64,000 nt of DNA from Amphiscolops sp. MND2022. Taxonomy: Eukaryota. Positions 14,480 to 38,619 of this stretch are shown here, piece by piece (positions within the stretch are counted from its first letter, which is position 1; every line of letters starts with the position of its first letter). The notes under the pieces were generated by a model. That model saw nothing but the letters and a program-made list of their open reading frames with translations. It was not told where the DNA came from and did no database searches. Location: NCBI GenBank assembly GCA_964187785.1, contig OZ076409.1:38502001-38566000 (forward strand), written 5' to 3'. Both the position numbers and the translations under genes were made by a program.

Positions 14480-16400
14480 TATCAATTAGCAATATTTCTC
14501 AATTTTACGTGCTTCAGCTTTGGTGGCGGTGGTTCCCTGGTTGCAAAAAGAGCCTTGATTCAGCCGACTTGGTGCAAGATCATCCAGAACTGTGACATCC
14601 CACACCAGCTGTTTACCCATTTCCCACGGAAACATGGTAAAACTGTCTGGGCGTTTGCCATCAGTTTCGTACAGTCCACGCGGCTTGAGCAAAGGAGGTA
14701 AGTCGAGAGATCCCAACATCTGCTTTATGAGTGAATTGGGAGTAGCATGACATGAGAAGCGACCGGCACACTTGGTACAAGAAAGACCGTGTAAACCACC
14801 CTGTTCAACATATGTTGGCTCCGAGACGTAAACCAATCCAAATCCGAAGCTGCTTAAGCAAATCAAGATTCAGGCTGAGGATCTTACAAGGAACCACGTT
14901 CAGACACTGAGATCCGAATATGCCTTGATGAGCGTTGAAAACTTTTGACCATTTGGCATCCTCTCCAGAAATGGAGTATTGGCCAGTTTTGACGTGAACG
15001 GGTTGACTTCAATTTTTTTGGGTTCCATCGAGAGGATTCTTTTGTTCAGTCGTCAAACTCAACGATTTCTCAAACGCTTTTATGAACCAAACATCTTTGA
15101 AGGTTTCAGTGAAAATTGTCGTGAGAAAGTCTCTTGCACCAGAAGCAGAGGCCAAAATTGCGGGAAGTGTTGATAACGGTGAGGATAAAACCCCAAGACA
15201 AATCATCGCAACGGAAAAGGCCAGCTGAGTTCTGGAAACATCGTCAAAATTCGTTTCATATTTTGGAAAAACTGTCGCGTACGGTTTTATCATACTTTTC
15301 AAGGGGGCTGAAATATTAAAGCATGTAGTGGTTCTCAACAGAAAGACCATAAGACGCCTCCGGATTTCCAATAACTTCAATAACGTTTTCCAGTTTATTA
15401 CTTTTCTTTTCGAACATGTCTGCCAGCGATTTCCGGCCGAGCGCTGAACCGAGAAGGATAAGTACATCTTCCGTTAGTCTTTTGATTCAAGAACGGATTT
15501 TCTGGAAAAACTCCGTAACTGTTGATCGTCGTTTTGCAGTGATGTAACAGAGGAAAAAACTCCCATTTCATGGCCCTAATTTCCAATGTTTTTTCTGCTT
15601 AAATATTTTTGAGATCTTTCAAATAGTTTCTGTAATCATCACATAAATGTCCATCATCGAGGTACCATGTGTTTGTTTTCGACTGCAATTGGGATCCTGA
15701 CTAGAATCCAAAAACAAAGCACACAGGAGACTCGGGATCTTCTTGCCGGGCCCCTTCAAAATGTTTGATTACCAAATCATCGTTAAAAAAGAAAACTTTA
15801 CTGACTGTACATCGAGTGTGAGTACTTATAAACTTCTGAGTGTGTTTCAAAAATTTTCTGGAGCATGAGTTGTCGGTTTATTGGAATGAAAGCGTTTTAA
15901 AAGTCAACTTTCAACAACAGAACATTTAGTGCCACTTTTGATGCCTACACCTACTTGTCGACTTCCGTATATTGCTTGCCGTGATTTGGAGACATGGTAT
16001 CCGGCACATTTTGCGGAGAACGGGCGGAAAATTTTGCCAACAACAATCGGACAAAGTTCTCCTTCGGGCTTCTCAGCGCAATTCATTCCGCACCGAAGAA
16101 GTAGGATCAAAGTTCGAACGATACTTTTCTTCCGATAATCACAATCACAAGACTCTGAGAAAAGTCAGTCCAGTTTGCGCATTCGAAAAGGCAGGCAAAG
16201 TTCTCGAAATTTAATGCAAAATGTCATCCAAAGCTACAATAGATCCGTTGGGAAAGTACATGTGAGCCATGTGGACAACGAACTCCGAGGTTGAAAACAT
16301 TCAAAAGCTGTGGTGTTAGGAACAGATCAAAGTTCCCTATGCGGATGTTTCAGCTAGAGGCCCGCGTAGTTGTTGATTGTGAAATCGGCAATCTTATAGT
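14480..16400 (-). mobile_element. Decayed RLE-type (CRE-like) non-LTR retrotransposon, copy 2
   Basis: RLE motif TDGKRPDSFTMFPWEMGKQLVWDVTVLDDLAPS (14486-14866), RT WYLDDG near 15650-15670, and LCPIVVGKIFRPFSAKC...QVGVG (15904-16110). Collinear with 3264-4900. Confidence 0.85.
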
Positions 16401-17704
16401 CGCCCACAGCCAATCGGGTTCCTGCCATTTTATTACTTATTATTACTTACGTCTGTTTTAGTGCAAATTGAACGTAGTCGTCGATCTAATTCGCTTCTCT
16501 GTTGCGGTTCCCTGACAAGTTTCGTTTTTTTTCTCTGGAAAACACCGCCCTCAACACGCTTGTTGATTATTGCACCGAGTGATAACCTCTGACGTTTACC
16601 TCATCGAGGTGGTTTTTCCAAAAAGGAAAACAGCTCATAGAGGATAGCAATAAGCACCAAGTGGAGAATATTTGGCGGGGTTTCACGAAAATCATTAATT
16701 TTGGGTATCATGGTTTCAGCTGGGGCGAAGCGTGAATTTTTAGAAATTCTCTTCAAGTGAACAACCCCTCAATTAAAAAGGGTGTCTGGTCCAAGGGATA
16801 GTTTCCACTTGAACACTTAAAACATTACCCCACCCAAATCGAAGACTTCTGACCCCCCATTACACTGATATTGACCAAACCTTCCCTCTCAACCCACTGA
16901 CTTCTGACTGAGAGCAGAACGAGTTGAACGAGTTGGAACTGATACGAGATCGAATGAATACACATAGTAATAAATGAGAAAACAGAAACGCAAAATGCAA
17001 AATTCAGATGAAATAAATACTTGAACAAAGATGAGAAATTGTCACTCAATTGATTTTCGAAATCCGATTACCCAGCCCTTCGAGGATGGTCTCAAGTCTT
17101 GGACCATTTCATTAGAAATGTGCATTTGTTTCTGTTGAGTCGAAGCCAAGTTCCTTAGTCAACGCAATCCTATTGGCAAATTCCCTTTCCTGTTGCTTCT
17201 GAAATCGAAGTGCACTCAGGAAATTTGGAGAAATCCGTGGAACTTTCAGGTTCCCTCTATTATTCAACTTTTACAGAAGTTAGTTGCACGAAGTCTGGTG
17301 GGGAGATCAAAAAAATTCCCTAGGTTTAGTGGTTCGATCCAGGTTCGATAGAAAGATTGATAAACTTGTAACAAATCGGGAAACTACCTTTTTAGCTCCA
17401 CAACTTTTGACTCTCTCAAGGGTTGACTCTCGCGATTGCCTTGCACACTTCATCTTCAGGGAGGTATGCTGATGCCATGAAAAGCCGAACAAATTTTTGA
17501 CAACATCATTGTCATCGTACGGTCTTTTTGAAGCCATATTCAACAACGTGTCCAAAAACAGACTAAGTGAAATGGAAGTAACAACCAATGTGCTCAACCT
17601 CCAAAAATTCGTCTCCATTGCTGTTGTTACGCCTCTTTCGTAATCAGTAACAATCGCTCCCGATATCCACCGTCGCCCTGTTACTCTTCCCCCCTGGTCA
17701 CAAG

Positions 17705-20181
17705 TGTTACGACATATCATCGGGTCGTTTTGAGTAGAACTTATTCTCACTGATTTTGTGGGAGTGTAAAAACTCCTAGTTTCCTCCTCTACTTCTTCAG
17801 TGTTTTCTCTAATAACCCCTTTTGTTTCAGGCTTAAGGAGTTTCAACATCTCCTTCTGAGATTCAATAAGAAGATTCTTAATTTCTGACGTTATTTCTTC
17901 CTTCAATGAAGCCCTCAAACTTTCAAGAAGACTATTTTCAATCCGAGGGGACTTGGGTCTAGAAGGCCCAGCTACTTCATCATCCTGATTCAAAGGACAA
18001 GAATCCCTTACTACTATAGGTGAAATCAAGCCTTCACTTACGTTCTCATCGGTGCTTTGCTGATCGTTCTTTCTTTTTTGGCTTCTTGTTGTTGACATTT
18101 TGTAGAAAAGTTTGATCTCGAAGAATTGAATTTCTTTCGAAGGATTTTCTGACAAAGTAGAACAAGTTGAGAGAGTAGAATTGAAAATTCAACTGAATTA
18201 TGCAATTACAAAAGACTGAGTCCCTTAATCATCAAATCCTATCATATTTATACCCTCCCAGCATCATTTGATCACGAACAAAGCCCTAATTTTCTTTGAA
18301 CAATTAGTCATTTCCTGTATTTTCGATGAAAAAATCATTTTGTTCCCAATTTTACGTCGACTTTTCGTCAATTTTTGAGACACGATGTTCTTCATTCAGT
18401 ATTAGTCATCAAGTTTGATCATATCATTTCATCTCGGCGTCCTTTTGCTTCCTCCCAAGCAGGAAGTAGATATTACTTCAGTCTGTCAAACCGGAAATGA
18501 TTCCCTGTTTTACTGCTTTGGTTCGCGGGAAATTGACGCTGAGATGACGCTGACGTGAACAAAAAATACCTGATTTTGAATTTTGCTTTGACAAAAATGC
18601 TATGACTAATTCCAAAATGGGAATATTTGAACGATGCTAGGACGATATTTTATGAATTTGGACCCAAGCTTTTGCTGAAAGTGAGAATAAAATTGTGATA
18701 TAAAAATAATATTTGTTAGCAACATTGTCGAGTCGTGTCAAATGCGACAAGATTTATAAAATTAACAGCAACGTTTGTTAAATAGCAACATCAACACAAC
18801 GCGTATAACTGGGCAGCAACTGGTCGCACTGGTATAAGAAAACATGAACACAATCACAAATACAGCGCTCAATGTTGTGGAGTACAAAAATGCAAAGTAT
18901 ATGAAAAATACATTTCTGGTACATAATAAGCTTCTAGCTGGGGAGAATAAACTGTGACTTCCTAATTAATCTACTGTGGAATCTTGTAATAAGATGGTTT
19001 ATGCACGGAGATTCCTTTATTGTTAAGAGCACATGATAGTTGCTTAACATGAGGTTAAATTATTCTGCTTGTATCAAAATGCATTCTAAATTAAGACCTT
19101 GAACCATGTAAAAAATCAGCAATACGTTCATTATACGATTTGCAACAGGCTGCAATTTCCCTTCCTTAAAAAATAACGGCACTTATGCGATGAAAACTTG
19201 ACTAAATTCAGCAAATTCATCCATTTTATTCAATTTCATAAACTTGTCAACGTCATGTTGACGAGTTTTCTTGGCAGAGTTGAATTTCATAAACTTGTCA
19301 ACGTCATGTTGACGAGTTTTCTTGGCAGAATAGAGATTTTGACTAGTTTGACGCAATGCTGACGAGTATTTTAGAAATGAGTCTCTCGCTAGTTACCGGA
19401 GCAGTGACGTCACACTGGCGGTAAATTGGAATGATTTCTAGCAATGCTATCAGTATAGGCGGATAATTGGAATGATTTTCTGGTACGCGTATGCGAGGCA
19501 GTGACGTCAATTGGTATGCTTTCAAACTTGTCTGCGTCTTACTGACGACAAATATACATGTACTCCCGTTTCTTTCGCCGCATTGTTTACTCAGCGCAGT
19601 ATTGACGTCCTAAATCGCTTTAATTGCTGTTCAAAAGAGTAATTAAGCTGTCTTTCTAAGAAAAGGCTTAGCTACCACGGTGTGCTGTCTCACTGTAATT
19701 TCCCGTTTTAGGTCCAAATGAAATGTAACTTTTCGGGATTAGTTTTGATGTAATTCCATTTAGATTAGCTTATGGTCTCTTTAATCTTGAGGTAGTTTTA
19801 TTCTAATTTTCAGGTTGTGAATGTTTCATTTGTCGTGGTTGACTCGTCCAGACAAACATGCGTGAAATCATTTTTGGATTATTTTGCCTCCTTATTTCAT
19901 TTCCGCTCAAATTTGCGCGCGGTAAACGTGTATTTTACATTTCCTTTGTTATTTCATCCAATTTTGCGAGAGCATAAAAATCTAGAACGCGTTCATTAGT
20001 TTTATTTGGGATTTTTGCTAGACAAACTATTATTGCGTTTCGAGTCACAGTTTATTTAAATTTAGTTAGAGTTCGAGTTAATAGCCGAAATACCTTTTCG
20101 TGAGTCTTGCGGTGCACCCATGTCCGCGCCCAAAACCAACTCTCCTGCATCCGCAATCCAGTCCGGGAGCGGACTGTGACA
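17705..20181 (-). repeat. 3' LTR (2477 bp)
   Basis: Matches 31585-34061 at offset 13880. I found four substitutions by eye (18732, 18781, 19101, 19126). Confidence 0.98.
19232..19329. promoter_or_regulatory. 51-bp-period tandem duplication in the LTR, each unit with the palindrome GTCAACgtcatGTTGAC (also at 33112-33209)
   Basis: aatttcataaacttgtcaacgtcatgttgacgagttttcttggcaga at 19232-19278 and 19283-19329. Perfect TGACGTCA sites lie nearby at 19405 and 19502. The regulatory role is inferred. Confidence 0.6.
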
Positions 20182-20809
20182 GGGCCACTGTCATGGGGCG
20201 AACGGCTTTACCGGGTTGATAGAAGTCGAACGCCTGTCGCAGGTGATTTTCGCGGGTGTAGTTTTCCTTGGCGACGTCTAGCGCTGATTTTGGCTCCTCC
20301 AGATCGTTTAGAGGACTAGTTGTCAGCAGATTTATTCTTCTCAGTGGGCCAGGGGGCGTGACAAAGTATGAAGAGGCGTCTTCTTGCTGCACCTTCTCCA
20401 GATATTCGGCTACTTTGCTACTTGTTACTGATTCGGTTTGTACAGCTGGGGCTTCTACTATGAATATGTCCGAAGACAAGCTTTCATCGGGGCTTTCCGG
20501 GGAGTCAGCAATAACTTCTTCGGTCGACTCAGAGTGGGGGTATTGTCCCGATTCTACAGTTTCAAAACTAGAGAACGACTCGCTCAGTTTCATTTTCTTG
20601 CATTCTGTTTCTAGTGAATTTACCGATAAGTCGAGGCATTCCTCTTCATCTGCGTTCGCCTCTGCTGATGAATTCAGAATTTCGATGACCAATCCCGGAT
20701 AGGCCCTGCTGTCACTAGGTATTGGGGTAGACGATCTTGTTATTTCGCCCTCCTCCTCGCTTGATGATGAGATGTCAATCAGTTCGTAGATGTCTAACAA
20801 GTTGTTCAT
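20078..20809 (-). CDS. Accessory ORF3 (243 aa): acidic Ser/Glu-rich protein with several SIM-like motifs and a Cys/His basic tail; overlaps the 3' LTR by 104 nt
   Basis: Intact ATG-started ORF in the gag-pol sense. Motifs include LIDISSSSEEE, LVIEIL, CLDLS and DIFIVE; the C-terminus is CGCRRVGFGRGHGC. No signal peptide or TM segment, so not env-like. Confidence 0.7.
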   Translation of the reverse strand: MNNLLDIYELIDISSSSEEEGEITRSSTPIPSDSRAYPGLVIEILNSSAEANADEEECLDLSVNSLETECKKMKLSESFSSFETVESGQYPHSESTEEVIADSPESPDESLSSDIFIVEAPAVQTESVTSSKVAEYLEKVQQEDASSYFVTPPGPLRRINLLTTSPLNDLEEPKSALDVAKENYTRENHLRQAFDFYQPGKAVRPMTVALSQSAPGLDCGCRRVGFGRGHGCTARLTKRYFGY

Positions 20810-20958
20810 TCTGCGGCGAAATTTCTTGGCTGCTGTTTTTCGAGTTTGATTGTTTCACAATGAATTTCCTCGGATAATTGGGATTGCTGAGAATGTTGGG
20901 ATAAATCCCTTCATTCTGATTGGTTAATCAATCTTTTTAATCCTTTTGATCTGCAGTT

Positions 20959-21214
20959 GTTGACGTTATGTCGACAGCTCTTTTTATTGGCCAAGAAATT
21001 GAAGTAATTCCTTTAACCAAACTTGTCAACGTTATGCTGACGTCATTTTCGCTAGCTTAGCTAACTTTTGTAATTTGTCACCGTTATGATGACGTCATTT
21101 TAGATTACAGGATTAATCTCTTAATCTCTATAACCTTTTTGTCGACGTTATGCCGACGTCAATTTCGTTGGTAATTAGCCAACTTTAATTTTTGTCACCG
21201 TTTTGGTGACGTCA
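20959..21214. promoter_or_regulatory. Array of five 17-bp imperfect palindromes (GTYRMCGTTWTGNYGAC) with abutting CRE-like TGACGTCA sites; putative divergent promoter
   Basis: Motifs at 20959, 21025, 21077, 21141 and 21194 (spacing 66/52/64/53). TGACGTCA at 21038, 21090 and 21207. Lies between the ORF3 ATG (20809, -) and the antisense gene ATG (21266, +). Confidence 0.65.
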
Positions 21215-21265
21215 ATTATGGGTGTTTTCATCTGTAGTTTTACTTTCAGATTCTCTGCTGTTTTG

Positions 21266-24200
21266 ATGGATTCTCGTTCCAGAAAACTTCCTGCCAACGA
21301 TCCTGGTGCCCAGAGTGGTCAAGAAACACAGTTTCTCTTTTCGGAGGGAGATGTGCGAGATAGTGAGACCGATCTCGTCAGCCAGCGTGTTCTTGGTGAG
21401 AATTTCCTCTTTATCCCCGCTTTCCATTAAGTCTTTGTGAAAATATACTTTTAGCAGTTAGGCCTTTCCTGCTTTAGTATTTCCACGACTTAGATTTTCT
21501 TGACGCGTCGAAGTTGGGGTTATTGTTTTTAGCGGCTGGTTCAGCTGTCTCCGCTGCTATCTCTTCGCATGACCCTGGGACTTCTTGTCTCCCTGCTGAT
21601 CTTGCCACCGTTCCAGTTGAGCCTCTTGGAGAGCCCTCTGAGGGAGCGACTGCTGCGCTGGTCGATACTTCTGTTCCAATTGCTGTTATTGCCTCTGCGG
21701 GTCCTAGTGCGGAACTTCTTCCTGTTTCTGCTGGGCCCTTGCGTGGTACTCACGGAGGTGAGGACTCTCCCCCCTCTTCTGAAGACGAAAGGACTTTGCA
21801 GAGCTTCAAGGCGGTCAGTAGCCAGGCTGTGACTTCGCCTCGATTCAGTTCATATTTGTCCGGCGTTGCGTCAGCCTTCGGGACCAAGACTTCTTCTCCT
21901 ACCGTCAAACGTGGTAAGTAGATGGAATGTTGTTGTTATTGATTTGTTGTTAATGTTTCTCTCTTTTCCGTGAATGGGTCGTGTTGTTCAGTATCTGTTA
22001 TGTAATTTTGTGTTGACAGTTCGTATGGCATCTCCCGAGAAGCAAGATGTTTGTGTGCCGACGACTTCAAGTCAGCCTCATGTCCTGGCGTCTAGTAGCC
22101 CGAAAAGACCTAGGGGGTTCGAGTTTCTCAGTACTGATGAGGAAACTGTTGTGCCCCCACCGGCTCCTCGAGAAGCTTCACAAGGTACCCGATTGAGAGA
22201 CGTACTCGGCTCGGATGTGGAGGGCTGGTCTTTGGAACCCTTTGTGGCAAGTACGTAATTTCTTTTCCAGAGTTTTTGTGTCGATGCGTGTGTCGCATTT
22301 TGCGTCTGTGTCGGCTTGGCCTAATCGAGGGTTTTCCTGGTGGCGTATGGTTTGTTTGACGCCTGCGTTGTAGCTAAGTCTGTGTTCTAAATTTTTGTTG
22401 TGCTCCTGTTGCATCAGTATTTCATCTAATTAGATGGCTATTTGTGTCAAAATCCATATGTATCTTGTTGGCATCGCCTTCATGTCGAGTTAGCAGTGTT
22501 TTGTTGTTGTAGAATTCGAAGAGTTGGTGAGCAGAGTCGAGACTACCCTCGAGAATGTTTCCCCTAGTCGGAAACGGGTGTACAGCCCGCGTAATCGACT
22601 CCGACGAGATATGGTAGCCAACCATCCAGTTTTCGAGTTGTTTGTGAGTGGCTCCAGCACTGGTTCAAACAAATTGTTCCATTGCATGATTTGCCAACGC
22701 GACGTCTCAATGGAATCACGGGGGGCTGCTGAATTTGCTCGCCATTTCTTCGGGAAGCGCCATTGGGAGCTGGACGTGACCTACCGAGTGCAGAACAATC
22801 TGCCTGTCTTTAACCGGCTGATGGACCCAATGGAGTTGTCCGAGGCTCAGTTGGAGGCGTATGCGAATCGTCCTTCTAAAGGGAAATCTGAAGGCTTCAG
22901 CTTTCCTGAGGATCTTTTGCCCACTTGTACCCGAGTAGATTCGTCTGTGCCCCTGTTGACGATGGTTAATTGTCTGCTCGAACTATGTCGTTGTGGCGGC
23001 AGTTATACCCTACTGCGGCGATTGTGGGGAAGCTTCCGGGCGACTTTGGGCCAGGAGAACCCGTTGTATAAACTGAGTTGGGATCGAGCTGAATCGTTGG
23101 TTAGTTTTTTTTTTCTTTCTTTTGATATCGATGTGTTTGTGCTATTTGTTGAGCTTTCTTTTTGTTGTCGAGATCCGTTACGTCTCATTGACGGCATACA
23201 CTTGTGATGTTGTTTGTCTTGTTTTAGTCTCTGCTTTGTCGTGCCATATTTCCACGTGTGTTGCGATCCCTGTTTGCCCGAGTGACTGCTTTCAAGGATT
23301 ACAGTCTTGTGTACGAGGAACGGGTTGACGGCTTGTACTGTTTCGTGCGTACTTGGGACGACACTAATCTGCAAGAAGTCTGCGTCCGTGTTGAGCCTCT
23401 TGGACAGCGGGTCCCAATTGCCGAGTTATCTTGCATGTCGCGCGTTGTCGATAGTCTCGTTTCATGCCGGTGGCCAATAGCTATACAAGGTGGGAGTCCT
23501 ACCTTGCATCGTGTGCTAAGTGACAATCGGGTGGATGGGCGTCGCTTCATTGTCTGTCGCGAGTTCACAGAAGATGTTTTCCTGCAAAGCTACCGAGAGG
23601 CGCATCACGAGATTTTTGGCATGTTGGAAATGACGTCTATGGTCGACTTTCTGATGCTTCGTCTACGTGGTGCCTTACAGGAGCCTTGGATGGAAGACGT
23701 AGTGGATCTTCGTCGTTGCGTTGTTGCTGGGCGTGTTGCCTTCGCTGAACTTTGTGGAGTAGTTACTGACCTAATCTCAATCTGGGAGTCAGTTCGAGAA
23801 TACGTGCGGTATACTGGTCCTGTTGAGCTGCAGACCCAACCTGAGAGGGTAAGTTCCTTTATATGTTTTTAATTGCATCGGCGGGGTGTCAACTTTGTGT
23901 AGTTGGGTGGGTCTTTCGGGGGTTTCTGTAGCGTATTATGCTTTCATCTTTGTGATTTGGTTTGTTTGTGTTGCAGATGCGCGGAATCGACTGGCTTGTA
24001 TTCTCAGAGAATACGAATGAGCTGCGCCTGGGTCTGTTTCTTCACATTTTGGAGCTGCGTTAGTTATATTTGTGTGGTATAGTGGTGTTCCTTTTGACAT
24101 GGGGGTGGGTTATTTTTGGTATTTAGATTCCTGTACTTTCAAAAAACAGCGGGCTAGACGAGGAGATTACACTTTTCACTGCTATAGTGAGTTGTGCCAG

Positions 24201-25358
24201 TTCGTCTATTGTCTGTTGACCCGAAGCCGAAAAGTGTCGTCTCTGCCAGAAATGAATTCATGGGAAGATTACATGGATTCAGAGAAGATTGCCAGCTTCC
24301 CCAAGACCAGTGATGCTACTTTTCTCTGCAATTTTGAGTTTGGTGAGGTTCTCCGGCAGAGAAATACAAGTGAAGTCAAGGATTTCCGTACTCGATGTCG
24401 CCGTTTTATCGATCGTCTTGTGGACGTCATTTTGTCGAAATTGTTGGTATCCTCTGATTTCTTGCAGGGCGTGTACTGCTTCTGTCCTGAGTTGCTTCTG
24501 GGTGGAGATGATCACTGTGTTTTCGCTCTGTTCAGCCGATTGATGCGCGTTCTCGAGAAGAGCGGGGTTGTATCCAGTGCAGAGTCAAGGAGTGCAGTTG
24601 AGGAGTTCGCCACGTTTGTTGTGGACATTCGTGCTCGCCATTTGTCTAGCGGACAGCAGTCCGAAGATATCGCTGATGTGATTTCTTATCTTCTAGCTGA
24701 TTATGGCTTTTTGGCACGCAAGTCTTTGTGTCACGTCTTTAAATTGTGCTGCCTCATGATTCGGAGGCCTTTGCCTCATTATCCTCAAGTGGATATCAGC
24801 TTAAATGGGTGTGATGTTCCCTCCAGTATTGTGACATCGTGTATTCGGGGCATCCAAAGTTATGTTTCCACTTCTCATTACCAGCAGGGATCTTTCTTCA
24901 CAAAGCATACCATGGAGTGTGTTCGTTCTGCTATCTCGGGGTCGCAAGATTTCATGGTACAGGCTGATTTTGATCCTTGGAATAGAGTGTGCAGTGATGG
25001 TCATGCAGTTTTTATGGAACGCTTCCAGAATTTGTTTAAAGATCATCTTGCACGTCGTAAGGAGGGAGCTCATGATCGTCTGTATCGTGCTAATCGCTCA
25101 AAACCTGCTAGAGATAGTGATACTTCGTGTGCTGTTGGAAGTGGTGGAAGCCCTACTTCGTCTGTTGTCTCTGCTCCTGCAACTAGTACTTCAAGTAGTG
25201 CTGTATCTTTTCGTCAGAGTAAGACTCGGGTTCATAGCAGTTTGGCTTCCTTGCTTGGGCGGAAGAAAGAGTGCAAAGTGAGTGGGACTAGTTGTTCCAA
25301 GGAGAAAGTGACGAAACGAGGTCAGAAAAGTCAGAAATCTGGGGGAGGATCCAAGTAA
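21266..25358 (+). CDS. Seven-exon antisense gene inside the retrotransposon; ~1087-aa protein with a C-x2-C-x16-H-x5-H zinc finger and hAT-transposase-like core
   Basis: Exons 21266-21395, 21533-21913, 22020-22250, 22513-23099, 23228-23848, 23977-24058 and 24127-25358. All six introns are GT...AG (donors GTGAGA, GTAAGT, GTACGT, GTTAGT, GTAAGT, GTTAGT) with T-rich acceptors. Phases 1,1,1,0,0,1 match on both sides, giving 3264 nt with no internal stop. Confidence 0.85.
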
Positions 25359-25607
25359 CATTACGTTATCAGTAACTTGCATTAGTCTGATTTATTGTTG
25401 TAGTTAGTTTGTTGTTTCCGTTTTAATGTATTGTTTTGAATTTGCAATGAGTCGTCGCTATGATGACCATTATAATTGATGTTGTAGTGGTAAAAGGATA
25501 TGTACAGGAGTAGTTAGTAAAAAGAAAAAGAAGAGGGTAGTTGTGTACCCTAATTGAAATTTGTCAAATCGGTTCGATTTGGACTCCTGTCGTTATCTTT
25601 TCTCTTT

Positions 25608-28600
25608 TTAGTGAGTCGTAGTTATAGCGTCAAGTCGTCTGAAGTCAGGGTTAGCATTAGGTTTAGGATTAGGTCTCAGATTATACTTTGCTGTTTTCCT
25701 TGGGTTATACCCGACAACTGTAGGCGGTGATCTTGGGGGAATAGGTGGGCTTTCAAGGGGTGGGGGGCGGCGTATGTATGGGTTATCCCCCACGTCTGTA
25801 GTAAGGTTTGAAAAATCCGGAGACGGCGGCGCCTCGTCATTCAGGTCATTAGTTCGGTTTCTTGGCATTTGTGTCGTCGTGTTTTCGTCATTCGTGTTTG
25901 TCACTTCTTGTATTTCTGCGTGTTGGTTATGTTTTGTATCAATTGATGTTTCGTGTTCGTCAATTTGTTTGCCGAAATCCATTTCCCACGATACCGCATA
26001 CCACTCATTGTGTGACACTTTGACTTCTGGATCGGGAAGATACTCGTTTGCTCGTACTGTGACGTCAGGCACGCGTTGTTCTGGCGTGTAAGGTCGTATA
26101 CGAATTCTGTGTAGTGTTTGTGTGTATCGCGTGCCAGTTTTTCGTATTGTGTAATTGTTATTTGAGAGTACTTTGATTACTATGTACGGTCCCGTCCAGA
26201 TACAATCTTGAAATGCAAACTTTGTCGATTGATTGTCAGCTTTCGGATTGAGGATGTAGCAGTAATCGTTGATCTTCAGTGGAGCAGCAGACGCTTTGCG
26301 GTCGTAATATTTTTTATATTTGAGGTAGGATAGCATTATATTGTCCTTTGTTGTCGCCCGTACCTCGTCTATTTGTTTTTGTATTTGCTCTGCTATGTCC
26401 GAGTTGGGCGTTGTTTTCCACTTTGGCTTGATTCCTAATTTTAGGTCGAGGACATTGTAAGGTATTCGTCCGTGGAATACTGTAGATGGTTCACAGCCCA
26501 GAGTCTCGTGGTATGTTGTATTGTAGTTCATTACAGCTATTTGGACATACTTGTGCCACATTGAACGTCGTTCGCCCGTCGAAATTTTTAGTGCGGTTTT
26601 GATTGACGCGTGTGTTCTTTCTAAAATTCCGATCGTCTGTGCATGTTTTGTAGACGCATGGCTGATTTGAATCTCGAGTATTTGGGCTATTTCTGTGACG
26701 ACTTCTGATCGAAATTGTGAGCCCTTGTCTGATAGGATTAGTGTTGGCAAGTATGCATGTCTTGTCATGACGTCGACAATGCATCGTCCGATTGTCTTTG
26801 CTGTGGTATTCTGTGTTGGGTAGGCGAATAGGTATCGTGAAAATACGTCAATCATCGTAACGATGTTTTGGTATCCTGCAGAGTTGGGTAGATTCGGTAG
26901 TATGTCAATTTCGAGAATGTCTTCCGGGCCCAGAACGTGTTCTGTGTTGTTAATCATCTTTGGTCTGATTTGACTATTGCTGATTCGTTTGTATTTGATG
27001 CAGTCTTCACATTGCATTACCCACTGTCTGATTTTCTTCGCCAAGCCAGGGTAATAATACTTTGATCGGCATTCTTGGATCATTTTTGTGATCCCTGGGT
27101 GTTTTCCCATTTGTCCATGAATTGCTTTTAGGAGTTCTGTGATCAAATGGTCGGGGATTAGTATTTGGTTATGTGTGACCTGGCCGCATTCTCCATAGTA
27201 TTTGCGCATTAGTACTCCATCTTTGACTATAAGTCTGTTTTCGTGTACTAGTAGACGTTTTGCTGTCGGGTCAGTTTGTAAGAGATGTTTATCATATTCT
27301 TCACATATCAGTTTTCTTTTGATTGCTTTGAATACTTGGTTTGAGTCTTGTTCGACCCTGATGCGTGCGTCTTCCTTGATTGTCCCGAATGTATATGCGG
27401 CTTTGTTTATTGGTATCGGTAGTGTTTCGGTTATAGATAGTTTGATTTTTGTCGTTTCTTCGTCGCGGGCGTTCTGTCTAGCTTGTTCTTTCTGGGCGAG
27501 AATTTCCTCCTCAGTTTCGATTGTTTCATCAGGAAGGAAGAAAAGTTGTTCCTCGTCCGCTACGTCTGTGGATTGTAGGTTCACTTGTATTGGTCTGATT
27601 GTAATGTCGTTTCTGATCTTTAGTTCGACTCTTTCCTTGGGGTTGAGATCGATTCTTGACAGAAAGTCGGCTGCCGTATTTTGCGTACCAGCTACGTGCA
27701 TTATATGAAAATTGAATTGTAGCACATAGTCACACGCATTCCATAGCGTAGGTGGTATGGCTTTTGTTTGAAAGAACCTTGTTACTGATCTGTTGTCTGT
27801 CATTACGAGAGTTGGTAGGGTTGTTTCCCATAATATGTGGCTGTATTCTAGGAAGGCGTGGTAGATTGCCAGAAATTCTTTGCAATAGATTGACATCTTG
27901 AATTGTGCTGGTGAGAATACTTTTGATCCAAATGCTACAGGCGCGAAGGTTTTCTTCTTGGAATTGAGTTTTTTGTCGTTTTCTTCTTCGATCATTAGGG
28001 CGTATCCTGAGGCACGAAAACTAGCGTCTGTCATTAGGACGTATTGTCGTCCTGTAATTGGTTGTTTGAGGGCTAGTCCACATGCTTCCGCTAATGCTGT
28101 GTTGATCGCTTTGTATTGATCTAATAGTTCTTCTGTGATTTTGATTTGTTTGTCAGCTTTCAGTAGTTGGTAGAAACCGAGTAGCTTTTCGGACAACCTC
28201 GGGATATAGTTGCGGTAGTAGTTGACAAAGCCTATGTATCTCTGTACTTGTTTCTTTGATTTCGGGAATCGTACGTTTGCTAAGAATTTCTGGATTTTGT
28301 GGTCTTGGGGGGCGATTCCTTGTGGGGTGATCGTTCTTCCAAGGAATTCGACCTTGGTCACTCCAAAGTGGCATTTGTCGATGGATAGTTTGAGTCCTGC
28401 TTGTCTGATGCATTCGAAGACGGCTCGGATGTTTCGTATCAGCTGCGTCACGGAGTTGGCGGCTATGCCGATGTCGTCCACATATTGTGCACATTGGTCA
28501 GCTTTGATTACTTTATCCAAATATTCCCTCATGAAACTAGAGAATGCTGATAAAGCTCTGCTCAGTCCTTGTGCTAGTCGTTTGTAGGCGAACGTTCTGC

Positions 28601-30554
28601 TTGCGAAGTTGAACGCTAGCATTTCGATTGATCTCTGGTCTGCCATCTGTAGACAGTGGTATGCTTGGGAGCAATCTAATTTGCAGAACAACTTTTTCCC
28701 TGCTAAGTGTTGGGCTGCGTCCGACAGGGTGCTGACTGGGTGGTTGTTGTTGATGTAATCATCTGAAATTAGGGCGTTTATTTTCCGTAGGTCAACGAGT
28801 AATCGCAGCTTGCCATTCGGTTTGCGTTGTGCAAAAATTGGGCTCGCATATTTTGAGAATGGTAGGGTCGTTATTATGCCGTACCTATGCATTAGTGCTA
28901 ATTCGACTGTTAGATCTTCTTTCAGGTTAATTGGTACCGGCAAGCTTTGCGTGTAAATTGGGCGCTCGTCCTTCGGAGTTAGTTTGACTTTGAAGCTATT
29001 GTTGATTCCGATGTCAAGGCGATGTCGGGCAAAGATATCGTTGTATTCCACTATTGTTTGCTCGAGTTGCTTCCTGTCATTGCCTTCGATTTGAGAACCC
29101 TCCCACTGGAACATGTCGAGGAACTTTTGTCTTGAGTCCTGGTCTTTGGTTGGGTCTAATTTTTCTTTCTGGATTAGTTCACGGATTTCCTTCAGGATCC
29201 GTCGTTGGATTGGCGTATGTTCTTCTTCGTTTCCCGGATTCTCAGGTGTGGGAAACCAGAAATTTTCATCACCCTGTTCAGTTTCGTTGGCCTTCATGAG
29301 TTCATTGACGTACATGTGGGTGTCATCAGGATCGTCTAGCAATTTGAGTGCTGCGGCGTCAACTGGTCGTATTTGTTTCGTGTCTTCAGGTTTGAGGATT
29401 TGTAGTTCTGCCAGCTTTGTATGATTCTTTATTGTATGTGGAAAATCCGTTAGGTTGGCGATTCTGATGTTGAGCCTTTTGTTATGGGCTGTCGCCAGAG
29501 CTGGTGCAACAATGATTGTTGCGGTTTCATCAAATTGTGGTAGTGGTTGTACCGCACCAGTGACGTTATGCAAGTTTGTGGTTATTACTATTGCGTTCAC
29601 TGTTGTGGTTTGTTGGGGTGGTAGGGTTTGATTTCCTTCTGCCATTATTTGGAGCGGTTTCGGGTTGCACTTTTTCATCTCGTCCGTCATGGCTAGCGTC
29701 ATTTCTACGTGCGGGAAATTAATGGTCCCGTTGGCAGTGTCTATTACTGCTTGGTGATTTCTCATGAAGTTCAATCCTATGATGGGAAATGACGTTTTCG
29801 ATAGGATGACGAAGGTGTCCGTGAAGGTATATGTTCCGATGTTGAACTGGATGTCCGCTGTGGCTATTGGTTGCTCTAGTTGTGCGTTTGCGCATTCAAT
29901 CTTGAAAGGAGGTTGAGGGTACTCTTTTATGACGCAACTATCACTGTTCATTTTGATTGCGTTGTAGTCTGACCAGGACATGGCATTGATGAACGCACCG
30001 GAGTCGACAAGTCCATCCATTGTTATTTCACCGAATTCTAGTGGCAAGTACAGCATTCTCCTTCTGTTTTTGAGGATTATAGTGGAGTGGAGAGGTATAT
30101 ATGTTTCTCCATCCTTTTCGGCTACGTACTCCTTGATTGAGTTGAGTGATGTGGGGAAATCGTCTGGGGGCGGAAATGTCTTGGTGAAGCTGTGATTATC
30201 TCCTTCATTTTGTTGTGACGATAGGTGATCGTCGGAGGCGCTTTCATTTTGTTCTACCTGGTTTATAGCGGAGAGTTCTCTGTTGATGGGGGTTAAGTTG
30301 GTAGGACGATTTGCTTGTTGTTTAGGATTGTCCCTGTAGTCTTTGTCGTGAGTGTAGGTGTCTGCTTGTTCGGTTGGTGGATATGGCCTTTTTATAGAAG
30401 CGAGTGCTTGTCGTCTTAGCCAATCTACCGTTGGTGTGCCATCGCACCCTACTGTTGAGTCGTTTGTATAGGTGATGGGGGGATCTGTTGATGAGTACGC
30501 CCTCGCGGCTACGGTTTCCCCGAAACGCAGGCGCGGCGTATCTAGTTTTTTGAT
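25608..30554 (-). CDS. pol: pol polyprotein (PR-RT-RNase H-IN), expressed by -1 frameshift from gag
   Basis: LVDSGA (protease), LDCSQAY and YVDD (RT), TDAS...DNR...ADFLSR (RNase H), H-x5-HPG...CEDC with DILP/SDKG/ERTH (integrase), WTGPY (GPY/F) and YNLRP. Manual translation shows the frame stays open upstream of the 30056 Met back to 30554. Confidence 0.97.
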   Translation of the reverse strand: MKKLDTPRLRFGETVAARAYSSTDPPITYTNDSTVGCDGTPTVDWLRRQALASIKRPYPPTEQADTYTHDKDYRDNPKQQANRPTNLTPINRELSAINQVEQNESASDDHLSSQQNEGDNHSFTKTFPPPDDFPTSLNSIKEYVAEKDGETYIPLHSTIILKNRRRMLYLPLEFGEITMDGLVDSGAFINAMSWSDYNAIKMNSDSCVIKEYPQPPFKIECANAQLEQPIATADIQFNIGTYTFTDTFVILSKTSFPIIGLNFMRNHQAVIDTANGTINFPHVEMTLAMTDEMKKCNPKPLQIMAEGNQTLPPQQTTTVNAIVITTNLHNVTGAVQPLPQFDETATIIVAPALATAHNKRLNIRIANLTDFPHTIKNHTKLAELQILKPEDTKQIRPVDAAALKLLDDPDDTHMYVNELMKANETEQGDENFWFPTPENPGNEEEHTPIQRRILKEIRELIQKEKLDPTKDQDSRQKFLDMFQWEGSQIEGNDRKQLEQTIVEYNDIFARHRLDIGINNSFKVKLTPKDERPIYTQSLPVPINLKEDLTVELALMHRYGIITTLPFSKYASPIFAQRKPNGKLRLLVDLRKINALISDDYINNNHPVSTLSDAAQHLAGKKLFCKLDCSQAYHCLQMADQRSIEMLAFNFASRTFAYKRLAQGLSRALSAFSSFMREYLDKVIKADQCAQYVDDIGIAANSVTQLIRNIRAVFECIRQAGLKLSIDKCHFGVTKVEFLGRTITPQGIAPQDHKIQKFLANVRFPKSKKQVQRYIGFVNYYRNYIPRLSEKLLGFYQLLKADKQIKITEELLDQYKAINTALAEACGLALKQPITGRQYVLMTDASFRASGYALMIEEENDKKLNSKKKTFAPVAFGSKVFSPAQFKMSIYCKEFLAIYHAFLEYSHILWETTLPTLVMTDNRSVTRFFQTKAIPPTLWNACDYVLQFNFHIMHVAGTQNTAADFLSRIDLNPKERVELKIRNDITIRPIQVNLQSTDVADEEQLFFLPDETIETEEEILAQKEQARQNARDEETTKIKLSITETLPIPINKAAYTFGTIKEDARIRVEQDSNQVFKAIKRKLICEEYDKHLLQTDPTAKRLLVHENRLIVKDGVLMRKYYGECGQVTHNQILIPDHLITELLKAIHGQMGKHPGITKMIQECRSKYYYPGLAKKIRQWVMQCEDCIKYKRISNSQIRPKMINNTEHVLGPEDILEIDILPNLPNSAGYQNIVTMIDVFSRYLFAYPTQNTTAKTIGRCIVDVMTRHAYLPTLILSDKGSQFRSEVVTEIAQILEIQISHASTKHAQTIGILERTHASIKTALKISTGERRSMWHKYVQIAVMNYNTTYHETLGCEPSTVFHGRIPYNVLDLKLGIKPKWKTTPNSDIAEQIQKQIDEVRATTKDNIMLSYLKYKKYYDRKASAAPLKINDYCYILNPKADNQSTKFAFQDCIWTGPYIVIKVLSNNNYTIRKTGTRYTQTLHRIRIRPYTPEQRVPDVTVRANEYLPDPEVKVSHNEWYAVSWEMDFGKQIDEHETSIDTKHNQHAEIQEVTNTNDENTTTQMPRNRTNDLNDEAPPSPDFSNLTTDVGDNPYIRRPPPLESPPIPPRSPPTVVGYNPRKTAKYNLRPNPKPNANPDFRRLDAITTTH
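30496..30551 (-). promoter_or_regulatory. -1 programmed ribosomal frameshift signal: slippery A AAA AAC plus downstream GC-rich stem-loop
   Basis: Minus strand TCA AAA AAC TAG ends gag, and pol is in the -1 frame (ATC AAA AAA CTA). TACGCC...GGCGTA encloses a TTTC-GGG-GAAA inner hairpin. Confidence 0.85.
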
Positions 30555-31978
30555 TCATCTGCGGCTTGATTTGTCTGTTGTTGTGCAGAGTTATCTTGTT
30601 TTCTTTCTTGTTGGAAATGTCGTTTAGGTCTCGGGTCGTTTGCCGAGTTAGCTCCGTTCCAACAGTTTTCTGTTTTGTGGGGTTTTCCACAGGTATCGCA
30701 TTTGGAGGTAATCCCGGTGGTGTTTCTGGTATGGCCATTATGTTTTCTTGTTTGTTGCCATTTGTCTCTCCGCAGTTTGCGGCATTCAGCCTTGAAATGG
30801 CCAAATTTATTGCAATAAAAGCAGTACCCTTTTTTAGTGTTTTGGGTAGTGTTTTCGGCTTGTTTGGGCTCAGTTTTTGTTGGGGCTGGTTCTGCTTTAT
30901 TGAGGGGTACCAGAGTTACATCGTCTGGTGCTCCAAGTCCGTTAAGTCGCATTTCTCTCTCTAGGTGTAGGACAATGTCGTTATAGGGCTTGTCTTCGAG
31001 GTATGCCCTATTTAATATTTTCTGCACGTGATCTGGCATTTTCGCGTAGATTGCTTTGTCGATAAATTGCTGAGCTTGTGAACCGAACGCCTCTTTTGCT
31101 GTTTTTTGAAGGACGTCCAGGAATTCGTGGAGTTTCTGTGTCGAGGGATCGAATTTAAGTGCGTCCCATTCACATCTGGCTTTTGCCATCGACAAGTAAT
31201 CTCCGAAGCGTCGTTTGAAAATCGTCATGATCTCATCAAGTGAATCCTTTTTCGTATCTTCGATATTACAAAATGCTTGTAAGGCGTCTCCCCTGAGGAG
31301 GGAGTGGAAGTAGTTTATTTTTTGGATTTCAGTAAGGTGCGGGTACATTTTTATGTTATTCCGAAAAAGGTCTTCGAATAGTTCGAATTTTTCCGACTTC
31401 CCGTCGAAGGTCGGGAGTGACGCCGTGAGTGCTTTTGGCATGGGTAGAGTAGTGCTATCATTTTTATCTGTTGCGAATAAAGTCCTTGCCGCCACTGGAC
31501 GTTCCTTTGACGGCGGCTGGCTCTGAGACCTGGCTTTTGTTCTTTTTGGCTGGTTTGTGGAATCGGTTAGGACTCCTGTCACCATGTTACGACATATCAT
31601 CGGGTCGTTTTGAGTAGAACTTATTCTCACTGATTTTGTGGGAGTGTAAAAACTCCTAGTTTCCTCCTCTACTTCTTCAGTGTTTTCTCTAATAACCCCT
31701 TTTGTTTCAGGCTTAAGGAGTTTCAACATCTCCTTCTGAGATTCAATAAGAAGATTCTTAATTTCTGACGTTATTTCTTCCTTCAATGAAGCCCTCAAAC
31801 TTTCAAGAAGACTATTTTCAATCCGAGGGGACTTGGGTCTAGAAGGCCCAGCTACTTCATCATCCTGATTCAAAGGACAAGAATCCCTTACTACTATAGG
31901 TGAAATCAAGCCTTCACTTACGTTCTCATCGGTGCTTTGCTGATCGTTCTTTCTTTTTTGGCTTCTTGTTGTTGACAT
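30542..31978 (-). CDS. gag: gag (478 aa from first ATG), with a capsid-like region and two zinc knuckles
   Basis: ATG at 31978 (MSTTRSQKRK); LPTFDGKSEKFELFE; CFYCNKFGHFKAEC (CX2CX4HX4C) and CDTCGKPHKTENC. The start lies inside the 5' LTR. Confidence 0.93.
   Translation of the reverse strand: MSTTRSQKRKNDQQSTDENVSEGLISPIVVRDSCPLNQDDEVAGPSRPKSPRIENSLLESLRASLKEEITSEIKNLLIESQKEMLKLLKPETKGVIRENTEEVEEETRSFYTPTKSVRISSTQNDPMICRNMVTGVLTDSTNQPKRTKARSQSQPPSKERPVAARTLFATDKNDSTTLPMPKALTASLPTFDGKSEKFELFEDLFRNNIKMYPHLTEIQKINYFHSLLRGDALQAFCNIEDTKKDSLDEIMTIFKRRFGDYLSMAKARCEWDALKFDPSTQKLHEFLDVLQKTAKEAFGSQAQQFIDKAIYAKMPDHVQKILNRAYLEDKPYNDIVLHLEREMRLNGLGAPDDVTLVPLNKAEPAPTKTEPKQAENTTQNTKKGYCFYCNKFGHFKAECRKLRRDKWQQTRKHNGHTRNTTGITSKCDTCGKPHKTENCWNGANSANDPRPKRHFQQERKQDNSAQQQTNQAADESKN
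31571..31584 (-). promoter_or_regulatory. Primer-binding site (TGGTGACAGGAGTC), probably tRNA-Leu-type
   Basis: Begins TGG immediately after the 5' LTR. The plus strand ACTCCTGTCACCA differs at one base from the metazoan tRNA-Leu(CAG) 3' end ACTCCTGACACCA as I recall it. Confidence 0.75.
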
Positions 31979-34061
31979 TTTGTAGAAAAGTTTGATCTCG
32001 AAGAATTGAATTTCTTTCGAAGGATTTTCTGACAAAGTAGAACAAGTTGAGAGAGTAGAATTGAAAATTCAACTGAATTATGCAATTACAAAAGACTGAG
32101 TCCCTTAATCATCAAATCCTATCATATTTATACCCTCCCAGCATCATTTGATCACGAACAAAGCCCTAATTTTCTTTGAACAATTAGTCATTTCCTGTAT
32201 TTTCGATGAAAAAATCATTTTGTTCCCAATTTTACGTCGACTTTTCGTCAATTTTTGAGACACGATGTTCTTCATTCAGTATTAGTCATCAAGTTTGATC
32301 ATATCATTTCATCTCGGCGTCCTTTTGCTTCCTCCCAAGCAGGAAGTAGATATTACTTCAGTCTGTCAAACCGGAAATGATTCCCTGTTTTACTGCTTTG
32401 GTTCGCGGGAAATTGACGCTGAGATGACGCTGACGTGAACAAAAAATACCTGATTTTGAATTTTGCTTTGACAAAAATGCTATGACTAATTCCAAAATGG
32501 GAATATTTGAACGATGCTAGGACGATATTTTATGAATTTGGACCCAAGCTTTTGCTGAAAGTGAGAATAAAATTGTGATATAAAAATAATATTTGTTAGC
32601 AACATTGTCGAATCGTGTCAAATGCGACAAGATTTATAAAATTAACAGCAACGTTTGTTATATAGCAACATCAACACAACGCGTATAACTGGGCAGCAAC
32701 TGGTCGCACTGGTATAAGAAAACATGAACACAATCACAAATACAGCGCTCAATGTTGTGGAGTACAAAAATGCAAAGTATATGAAAAATACATTTCTGGT
32801 ACATAATAAGCTTCTAGCTGGGGAGAATAAACTGTGACTTCCTAATTAATCTACTGTGGAATCTTGTAATAAGATGGTTTATGCACGGAGATTCCTTTAT
32901 TGTTAAGAGCACATGATAGTTGCTTAACATGAGGTTAAATTATTCTGCTTGTATCAAAATGCATTCTAAATTAAGACCTTAAACCATGTAAAAAATCAGC
33001 AATACATTCATTATACGATTTGCAACAGGCTGCAATTTCCCTTCCTTAAAAAATAACGGCACTTATGCGATGAAAACTTGACTAAATTCAGCAAATTCAT
33101 CCATTTTATTCAATTTCATAAACTTGTCAACGTCATGTTGACGAGTTTTCTTGGCAGAGTTGAATTTCATAAACTTGTCAACGTCATGTTGACGAGTTTT
33201 CTTGGCAGAATAGAGATTTTGACTAGTTTGACGCAATGCTGACGAGTATTTTAGAAATGAGTCTCTCGCTAGTTACCGGAGCAGTGACGTCACACTGGCG
33301 GTAAATTGGAATGATTTCTAGCAATGCTATCAGTATAGGCGGATAATTGGAATGATTTTCTGGTACGCGTATGCGAGGCAGTGACGTCAATTGGTATGCT
33401 TTCAAACTTGTCTGCGTCTTACTGACGACAAATATACATGTACTCCCGTTTCTTTCGCCGCATTGTTTACTCAGCGCAGTATTGACGTCCTAAATCGCTT
33501 TAATTGCTGTTCAAAAGAGTAATTAAGCTGTCTTTCTAAGAAAAGGCTTAGCTACCACGGTGTGCTGTCTCACTGTAATTTCCCGTTTTAGGTCCAAATG
33601 AAATGTAACTTTTCGGGATTAGTTTTGATGTAATTCCATTTAGATTAGCTTATGGTCTCTTTAATCTTGAGGTAGTTTTATTCTAATTTTCAGGTTGTGA
33701 ATGTTTCATTTGTCGTGGTTGACTCGTCCAGACAAACATGCGTGAAATCATTTTTGGATTATTTTGCCTCCTTATTTCATTTCCGCTCAAATTTGCGCGC
33801 GGTAAACGTGTATTTTACATTTCCTTTGTTATTTCATCCAATTTTGCGAGAGCATAAAAATCTAGAACGCGTTCATTAGTTTTATTTGGGATTTTTGCTA
33901 GACAAACTATTATTGCGTTTCGAGTCACAGTTTATTTAAATTTAGTTAGAGTTCGAGTTAATAGCCGAAATACCTTTTCGTGAGTCTTGCGGTGCACCCA
34001 TGTCCGCGCCCAAAACCAACTCTCCTGCATCCGCAATCCAGTCCGGGAGCGGACTGTGACA
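31585..34061 (-). repeat. 5' LTR (2477 bp)
   Basis: Direct repeat of 17705-20181, adjacent to the PBS. Confidence 0.98.
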
Positions 34062-34721
34062 ACAAGTTACTTGGCTTAAAGTCAATTTGCTTAAGTTTTT
34101 CGTCGAGTCATTTAGCTTAAAAGTATCAAGCCAAATGACCATAAAAATAGACCAAATGCATTCAAACTCAAGCAATGGCTAAAAGCAACCTTTCAAAGAC
34201 CAAACGAAATTGAATTAACTAGATGTTCAAGAGACGAAAAACAAATGTTTTAGCATGTTTGTTGATTGCCTCGGCCGTTTTCCTCCTTTCGTCAAGTAGC
34301 AGCCTGTTGAGCGGGGACATATGGCACGTCGCTGCGCTTTGCTTCGCTCCTGCATTTATGGCATTAGGGGTTTGTGAACATAGCGGATTGCGTAATTATA
34401 GAATTTCGACAAAATCTCTCACGCGTTTCAGTTTGGTGATTGTTAGCCGAACAACTCTAAGCCAAGTTAAAATTACCTATGACATTTGCCTCAAAAAAAA
34501 ACTAAGTGATCAAATGCTTTACGCCACATGTTTCAAGCCAAATGATTTTAGGCCAGGTGATTTTAAGCCAAATGGCCAATTACCTCTCTTTCTTGAGCAG
34601 ATAACCTGAAATAAATTTCGGTAGTGATAAGTAGTGTAACCAAAAAAAGCAAAAAAAAACTAGCGTCAAGAACTGGTTTTCCCATGACCCAACGAGGACA
34701 TTGAACTGATAATACTTGTTT

Positions 34722-38176: not shown

Positions 38177-38189
38177 GTCAAATAAATAA

Positions 38190-38590: not shown

Positions 38591-38619
38591 TTAAATTAAA
38601 ATTCAAAATTCTTATGAAT

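Follow-up and report, generated by a model that had tools for sequence, protein, structure and literature searches.

ORF3 of a Ty3/Gypsy retrotransposon in Amphiscolops sp.: a conserved accessory gene and candidate half of a two-gene regulatory cassette

The window analyzed here is a stretch of 64,000 nucleotides from Amphiscolops sp. MND2022 (assembly GCA_964187785.1, contig OZ076409.1, positions 38,502,001 to 38,566,000), and all coordinates are counted from its first letter. It contains an intact Ty3/Gypsy long terminal repeat (LTR) retrotransposon of 16.4 kb on the minus strand. The subject of this report is an additional open reading frame of that element, ORF3 (20078..20809, minus strand), which has no internal stop and encodes an acidic accessory protein of 243 aa predicted to be mostly disordered. 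ORF3 is best read as an accessory gene of a Ty3/Gypsy family and as one half of a putative two-gene regulatory cassette, in which it lies head to head with an antisense gene (start codons 456 bp apart). An earlier note on this DNA had proposed that ORF3 is a protein with many SUMO-interacting motifs (SIMs), placed like nef over the 3' LTR and acting as a SUMO decoy or anti-silencing factor.

On comparative evidence, ORF3 is almost certainly a real gene under selection. No ATG-initiated frame as long as ORF3 arose in 3000 shuffles of the region (mean longest frame 54 aa), so the intact frame described in the earlier note is borne out, and the five peptides quoted there, together with a C-x-C-x8-H-x-C tail, are all present in the protein. 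A homologue search yielded 153 clusters among 594 candidates; the 120 that were listed are 44-98% identical to ORF3, hold 997 member sequences and all fall under one source label. Both ends were in frame in 76 of the 120 (median identity 56%, 32 different lengths), and the start Met was invariant in the 93 homologue rows reaching it. At a query coverage of at least 98%, full length was found for 20/20 clusters with at least ten members as against 44/100 smaller ones. Conservation in other copies, on which the earlier note had made its reading depend, was thus found. A profile of 27 sequences searched against 1.84 billion proteins gave 122 matches, mostly fragments; P0170 and P0172 are full-length remote homologues, 30-32% identical to ORF3 (32% for P0172). 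Across the 20 large clusters, identity alternated between motif blocks (0.57-0.73) and linkers (0.16-0.39), with block limits picked after the profile had been viewed.

That ORF3 is instead a non-coding by-product, its frame held open by constraint on the DNA or by a plus-strand frame at 20262-20702, has scarcely any probability. The tail does overlap the constrained end of the LTR, but the invariant start Met, the in-frame insertions and deletions throughout, the two full-length homologues at about 30% identity and a stop-free path over 85-110 replacements (neutral odds < 0.01 per lineage) all speak against it. The plus-strand frame, a Ser-rich frame opposite ORF3 with which no search was made, was rejected as a gene. 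An AATAAA signal 22 nt past the ORF3 stop was likewise rejected as evidence, being at chance level in this LTR. In the four matches that were read (P0196, P0203, P0236 and P0237), unrelated sequence was fused to an ORF3-like tail at L-S-Q, as would be expected if other copies likewise have the start of the LTR at that point. Searches of ORF3 against Pfam and against PDB sequences returned nothing significant (single chance matches at most for the 27 members), and no related locus was found among the viral or metagenome contigs searched. ORF3 is a new protein family, and the cassette is a new layout within a known kind.

The protein contains 14% Ser and 17% Asp plus Glu, has no hydrophobic stretch and is predicted to be disordered save for one helix with an amphipathic pattern (aa 130-144, 20378..20422); its structure model reached a predicted local distance difference test (pLDDT) value of 52 and a predicted template modelling (pTM) score of 0.14. 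Motifs were counted by using ELM-style patterns in the 76 full-length homologues, or in the 31 remaining after an 80% redundancy filter. A SIM is a loose motif, a four-residue V/L/I core followed by acidic and CK2-type Ser residues (PMC12751080). Site 1 (aa 10-20, 20750..20782) has such a core with at least three V/L/I residues (L-I-D-I), followed by a Ser run and an acidic run in canonical parallel orientation, in a conserved setting predicted to be disordered. It is kept in 61/76 full-length homologues, in 24/31 non-redundant ones and in 20/20 large clusters (19 with L-I-D-I, one with L-M-D-I); among the remote homologues, P0172 has V-I-D-L-V-S and P0170 has Lys at the third place. Judged by sequence, site 1 is a classic conserved motif of the phospho-SIM type, and on balance it may be expected to bind SUMO or UBC9. 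A complex prediction for ORF3 aa 1-70 with SUMO2 scored 0.01 and was given no weight either way.

The remaining sites are less clear-cut. Site 2 (aa 41-44, 20678..20689) is a variable, loose hydrophobic core, found in 42/76 homologues in loose form and in 5/76 by the strict pattern. Site 4 (aa 115-119, 20453..20467), a beta-type hydrophobic core with a central Phe, is kept in 68/76 (29/31 non-redundant) and is a possible second SIM. At site 3 (aa 58-62, 20624..20638), an acidic run precedes F/Y-x-D-hydrophobic-S, with Cys as the aromatic residue's substitute in this copy; the aromatic form occurs in 57/76 homologues, a pattern like that of the LC3-interacting region (LIR) in 55/76 and a strict SIM in 2/76, so site 3 would fit an LIR or an acidic activation motif as well as a SIM. 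A cytoplasmic ATG8/LIR adaptor that protects or routes particles could be read from the acidic-[F/Y]-x-x-[L/I/V] form of this site in those 55 homologues, and LIR and SIM binding modes are alike. The Cys at the aromatic position of this copy, and a monopartite K-[KR]-x-[KR] motif of the nuclear localization type (aa 71-74, 20588..20599) that is better kept (72/76), make that reading extremely unlikely. ORF3 is probably a nuclear regulator. Several Ser/Thr-Pro sites (56-66 of 76), L-N-D-L (62/76) and S-P-E-S-P (65/76) are also conserved. EVIADSPES, which the earlier note had listed among the SIM-like peptides, was rejected as a SIM, with no pattern match in the query and 0/76 in the homologues; the conserved part there is S-P-E-S-P.

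The C-terminal basic tail, C-x-C-x8-H(-x-C), is specified by 34 LTR-encoded codons (20078..20181) and contains 6 K/R against 1 D/E. C-x-C-x8-H was found in 62/76 homologues and the last Cys as well in 48/76, and the tail is retained at 30% overall identity. Such a tail would suit an RNA-level helper similar to Rev or CERV, in which it would bind genomic RNA while export or 3'-processing factors are drawn in by the other motifs, perhaps to bring that RNA past the AATAAA signals in U3. The conserved Ser/Thr-Pro sites agree with this, and CERV is a phospho-regulated nuclear Gypsy accessory protein required for RNA export (PMC10309623). We nevertheless consider the RNA-level role quite unlikely, given that ORF3 matches no RNA-binding family, that the five AATAAA signals of the LTR are close to chance for a sequence with 34% A, and that the dyad shared by LTR and spacer (below) would be left unexplained. 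An env role was rejected, as ORF3 is without a signal peptide, transmembrane stretch or furin site (top 19-residue hydropathy 0.65, no R-x-[KR]-R). An AG lies one base ahead of the ORF3 ATG, but relatives have Lys, Glu or Arg codons before the Met and not a pyrimidine tract, which weakens a spliced, env-like route of expression.

The second half of the cassette is an antisense gene model of seven exons on the plus strand (21266..25358), separated from ORF3 by a spacer (20810..21265) with five copies of a 17-bp dyad at 20959, 21025, 21077, 21141 and 21194. Allowing one mismatch, the dyad has nine matches in the 64-kb window, five in the spacer and two in U3 of each LTR (19246 and 19297; 33126 and 33177), as compared with none in 100 shuffles. 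The spacer also holds four octamers resembling the cyclic AMP response element (CRE), where 0.015 are expected, and four of the five dyads overlap them; two more occur in the 3' LTR at 19405 and 19502. Three CCAAT boxes in the spacer face ORF3 (0.65 expected, P=0.03). The simplest reading is that the spacer is a putative divergent internal promoter, co-regulated with the LTR.

The antisense model (exons 21266-21395, 21545-21913, 22020-22250, 22513-23099, 23228-23848, 23977-24058 and 24127-25358) predicts 1083 aa in an open frame across six GT-AG introns, which were picked by eye. GC content is 51-56% in exons 1-6 and 34-42% in the introns. For the last exon, 83 homologue clusters were found (43-99% identical), and conservation begins at the predicted acceptor. 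A peptide like exon 6 was present in 9 of these 83. In two of the nine it is followed by the last exon at the four-residue spacing that the spliced model predicts; in another four, 28-48 residues of unrelated sequence intervene, and for three the spacing was not measurable. Comparative support is thus for intron 6, and introns 1-5 rest on the open frame. A donor for intron 6 at 24032 (1074 aa) was replaced by 24059 (1083 aa) on the homologue evidence. P0247 and P0265 read through the position of intron 6 with the spliced spacing, which suggests intron gain or loss within the family. P0314 carries a stretch like the antisense exons fused to a reverse transcriptase (RT) fragment and is probably a rearranged copy of the element.

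Exon 4 encodes a candidate zinc finger, C-x2-C-x16-H-x5-H (22683..22763, plus strand), with sub-threshold Pfam hints only (E 0.06-0.27). The layout of exons 4-7 may correspond to that of a hAT-type transposase (N-terminal finger, RNase H-type core, C-terminal dimerization region) without the catalytic acids; the finger is present, but neither single exons nor 50 aligned members gave a hAT match in Pfam. Pfam and PDB sequence searches of the antisense exons returned nothing significant, and no longer relative of the last exon was found among 7991 candidates of 813-2320 aa, a weak test. The model of the last exon (helical, mean pLDDT 65) had no PDB or BFVD match at E up to 0.001, which excludes no family; its best Z was 4.7 among 48,161 chains, and its Atlas matches were to mixed helical-repeat families with few common features. 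Homologues of ORF3 (118 values) and of the antisense gene (81) have 19 contig sizes in common, one of them 19,383 bp, as a proxy for linkage without positions.

These features might also describe a plain acidic transactivator or co-activator, of the kind of foamy virus Tas, Tax of human T-cell leukemia virus or E1A. The antisense protein or a basic leucine zipper (bZIP) factor of the host would bring it to the dyad or the CRE-like sites, and its islands would contact Mediator, p300 or TFIIH, not SUMO. The acidic N-terminal 150 aa (34 D/E against 7 K/R), the conserved aromatics at sites 3 and 4, the single amphipathic helix and the excess of CRE-like octamers in the spacer would all suit such a protein, and Tas of bovine foamy virus activates both its LTR and an internal promoter (PMC6950176). 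In the ESM Atlas, the clusters closest to ORF3 are those of E1A; their score of 0.82 is one that shuffled proteins also reach, and the match is no more than a lead. However, the best-kept motif, at the very N-terminus, is an aliphatic L-I-D-I with a Ser run; it looks more like a SIM than like an activation domain and is still aliphatic at 32% identity. Nor was ORF3 linked by sequence to Tas, Tax or E1A. We regard the transactivator as unlikely.

The mechanism that we propose brings SUMO contacts and cassette together. If the spacer is a divergent internal promoter, both genes would be expressed independently of the genomic RNA. Family specificity would come from binding of the dyad, in the LTR promoter and in the internal one, by the antisense protein or by a dimeric factor of the host. 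ORF3 would enter the nucleus, its Ser run would be phosphorylated, and via site 1, perhaps helped by site 4, it would bind SUMO on silencing proteins at those loci. By displacing or inactivating these proteins, or by bridging to co-activators, ORF3 would keep the element's own copies expressed. SUMO is needed for transposon silencing guided by PIWI-interacting RNAs in flies (PMC10363806). As a whole, this locus-directed, pro-expression model in which ORF3 acts through SUMO contacts is plausible, while falling somewhat short of probable. Anti-silencing becomes a testable question in this amplified Gypsy family, where a conserved protein of the phospho-SIM type is accompanied by candidates for its DNA-binding partner and for the target motif.

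Several points weigh against this model. The dyad pattern was derived post hoc from the very copies that it counts, and since four of the five spacer dyads overlap CRE-like octamers, they might be bound by a bZIP factor of the host. The linkage of ORF3 and antisense gene across copies, read from shared contig sizes, is a proxy without positions. The association of full length with member count is biased because large clusters tend toward long representatives; mismatches have a mean BLOSUM score of -0.27, barely above the single-base neutral value of -0.43; and conservation of the tail may be partly at the DNA level because the tail overlaps the LTR end. A SIM is a loose motif and just one of the sites in ORF3 is canonical. 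Islands that are both hydrophobic and acidic are equally a feature of acidic activation domains and of LIRs. No RING or other folded domain is present in ORF3, and the SUMO-acceptor consensus was found nowhere in the query and in 1/76 homologues. By the ELM-style patterns, the query has 3 SIM-like cores against 1.33 expected (10,000 shuffles, P=0.13), and cores exceed chance only by a pattern fitted post hoc (4 against 0.30, P=1e-4).

The poly-SIM label must be narrowed in the same way: beside one canonical, conserved site stand two loose ones and an aromatic one resembling an LIR, EVIADSPES fails and the count is not significant. In its strong form, the earlier proposal would make ORF3 a free poly-SIM sponge for SUMO that weakens silencing genome-wide. 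Up to three or four hydrophobic-acidic islands lie within 120 disordered residues, and several SIMs favor binding of poly-SUMO (PMC12751080). The sponge is decidedly unlikely, however, with a single canonical site, site 2 variable and site 3 aromatic; moreover, known transposon anti-silencers are narrow, and if silencing were blocked broadly, the germline and fertility of the host would suffer (PMC6719617). A SUMO-related, anti-silencing role keeps the support of an N-terminal SIM-type motif that is among the best-kept parts of the protein, and a locus-targeted regulator is preferred to a free decoy because the cassette includes an antisense gene with a zinc finger as well as a dyad specific to the element.

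The cassette might also act in the opposite direction. SIM-bearing proteins are often repressors, and the SIM of ORF3 might recruit SUMO-dependent co-repressors to the dyad, so that the cassette represses its own element in a manner like HBZ or copy-number control. Self-control strategies are common among transposons (PMC6719617), and antisense transcription alone can damp an element (PMC7264820). Such self-restraint is very unlikely in view of a family that is large and young (997 members in the listed clusters; LTRs 99.8% identical) and whose most amplified clusters keep ORF3.

The locus-directed model can be taken one step further, to an element that carries an anti-silencing switch of two components, specific to its own family. 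One component, encoded antisense, would be a captured DNA transposase that has lost catalysis and reads the dyad at both promoters; the other, the SIM-bearing disordered ORF3, would disarm SUMO-dependent heterochromatin there. This fuller version is rather doubtful; if true, retrotransposons would have their own counterpart of VANC, and a SUMO-dependent silencing pathway would have an antagonist encoded by a transposon. Neither a SIM-bearing retrotransposon accessory protein nor this head-to-head cassette was found described in the literature searched, which excluded most subscription papers.

The element that hosts ORF3 is bounded by LTRs of 2477 bp with TG...CA ends (3' LTR 17705..20181, 5' LTR 31585..34061, both minus strand), which differ by 4 substitutions (99.8% identical), and by a 5-bp target site duplication (17700..17704 and 34062..34066); the insertion is young. 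On the minus strand, gag (30542..31978) is intact with a zinc knuckle, and pol (25608..30554) is intact in the order protease-RT-RNase H-integrase, in the -1 frame and overlapping gag. Pfam matches in pol were RVT_1, RT_RNaseH, Integrase_H2C2 and rve, with a weak protease match (E 0.013). A heptamer at 30545-30551, directly before the gag stop, is presumably a slippery site. The gag frame starts inside the LTR (position 2084 of 2477; 31585-31978), so that the 5' LTR contains gag codons 1-131. The putative primer binding site falls within the gag frame, its TGG start abutting the 5' LTR end, and a TATA-like box lies at LTR position 1930.

No polypurine tract was found before the 3' LTR (7/15 bases are purine, with no run of at least 9 within 450 nt), and the Ty3/Gypsy assignment holds despite this because other features fix it. 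Ala-Leu stands at the junction of ORF3 and LTR in 20/20 large clusters (at least ten members); it forces pyrimidines there, and the missing tract may therefore be family-wide. A 6-bp inverted repeat spans the LTR boundary (20182-20200). Where pol and the antisense gene run toward each other, at a distance of 5 kb from the LTR, two purine runs lie between their ends, of 19 nt (25519-25537, plus strand) and 14 nt (25596-25609, minus strand), and a degenerate dyad occurs at 25451. Nothing on an atypical polypurine tract was found in the literature searched, most subscription papers lying outside it. Even if SUMO plays no role, this would be a Gypsy family laid out like a complex retrovirus, with two putative regulators, a putative internal promoter and no polypurine tract.

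Elsewhere in the window, 626-bp direct repeats (15765-16389 and 34716-35341, 96.8% identical) flank the element; the target of its insertion may have been an older, small element of about 3 kb that was bounded by repeats. A decayed second Gypsy-type element (7281-9664, plus strand) retains fragments of protease, RT, RNase H and integrase, and a 1.5-kb segment occurs in two copies (3282-4820 and 14462-15914, 73% identical) with ORFs lacking a Pfam match. The interval 35331-45601 is taken up by an AT-rich inverted repeat, whose arms measure about 5 kb and are 80-95% complementary; the ORFs scanned in it gave no notable Pfam match. A tandem array of about seven units of 706-721 bp lies at 52379-56984. 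A C2H2 zinc-finger exon (46568-47239, minus strand) and an NmrA-like exon (63204-63548, plus strand) probably belong to host genes.

Among known systems, Nef of the human and simian immunodeficiency viruses (HIV/SIV) is the last sense ORF and runs into U3 of the 3' LTR, the same position as ORF3. The nef-like label thus holds as a statement of position, without homology; the overlap with the 3' LTR is real but small, 104 nt in U3 covering codons 210-243 only. Unlike Nef, ORF3 begins M-N-N, lacks a Gly2 myristoylation signal, matches nothing in Pfam or among PDB sequences, overlaps the LTR by only 34 codons and contains no polypurine tract. Nor does it resemble an RNF4-type SUMO-targeted ubiquitin ligase (STUbL), having no RING and only a three-to-four-ligand Cys/His tail. 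By the features tested, its predicted protein is not an Env, a Nef or a STUbL. An extra gene that is expressed separately is also carried by Gypsy-type elements of animals, among them Cer1 of C. elegans (CERV) and those with third ORFs in bdelloids and in Oikopleura Tor, the last with an internal promoter for env (PMC10309623, PMC5408684, PMC4402516). Those extra genes encode an export factor, enzymes or Env, unlike ORF3, in which there is neither a transmembrane stretch nor an enzyme domain.

It is already known that additional ORFs, both sense and antisense, can occupy the region between pol and the 3' LTR (PMC7264820, PMC11963269, PMC5408684), and element-internal promoters are known too (PMC4402516, PMC6950176). 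Maize Grande gene23, RIRE2, Retand TRP28 and Botrytis Boty brtn (named in bioRxiv 10.1101/2021.04.13.439636) resemble the present case in having a family-wide extra antisense gene between pol and 3' LTR (PMC7264820, PMC11963269), and gene23 is nuclear with its own promoter (PMC7264820). Unlike in Grande, Retand and Boty, sense and antisense genes here lie head to head around one spacer and the antisense gene has six predicted introns; unlike in Retand, neither the ORF3 nor the antisense protein matches TRP28 (PF04195) or any Pfam family. Foamy virus tas/bet is an accessory gene beside the 3' LTR whose transactivator works on LTR and internal promoter, a likeness to the reading given here (PMC6950176). 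The present element differs from foamy virus and from human T-cell leukemia virus (HTLV) in having no env and no sequence similarity, and its antisense gene starts inside the element, not in the LTR. In HTLV, Tax and HBZ are sense and antisense regulators around CRE-like repeats. ICP0 and K-Rta are further viral SIM-bearing hubs.

The closest likenesses in mode of action may be to two other systems. VANC of Arabidopsis VANDAL and TnpA of Spm pair an accessory protein with a short motif that is repeated in non-coding regions of the element and rare outside; VANC works via such motifs in its own element (PMC6719617). Here, 9/9 dyad matches in the 64-kb window fall in the spacer or the LTRs, by a pattern obtained post hoc. 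VANC and TnpA belong to plant DNA transposons and act on DNA methylation, unlike here, so the likeness is one without homology. Catalytically dead transposase derivatives serve as regulators, in a preprint that makes no mention of LTR, retrotransposon or SUMO (bioRxiv 10.64898/2026.08.24.746577). Adenovirus E1A is, like ORF3, an acidic disordered protein of about 250 aa with short motifs; its motif EVIDLT binds UBC9, and V-I-D-L-V-S of P0172 is close to it (PMC5030357). Unlike E1A and the viral SIM hubs, ORF3 is without RING, L-x-C-x-E and P-x-D-L-S. By analogy, ORF3 may work most like the E1A-type motif hubs, in a setting like that of VANC.

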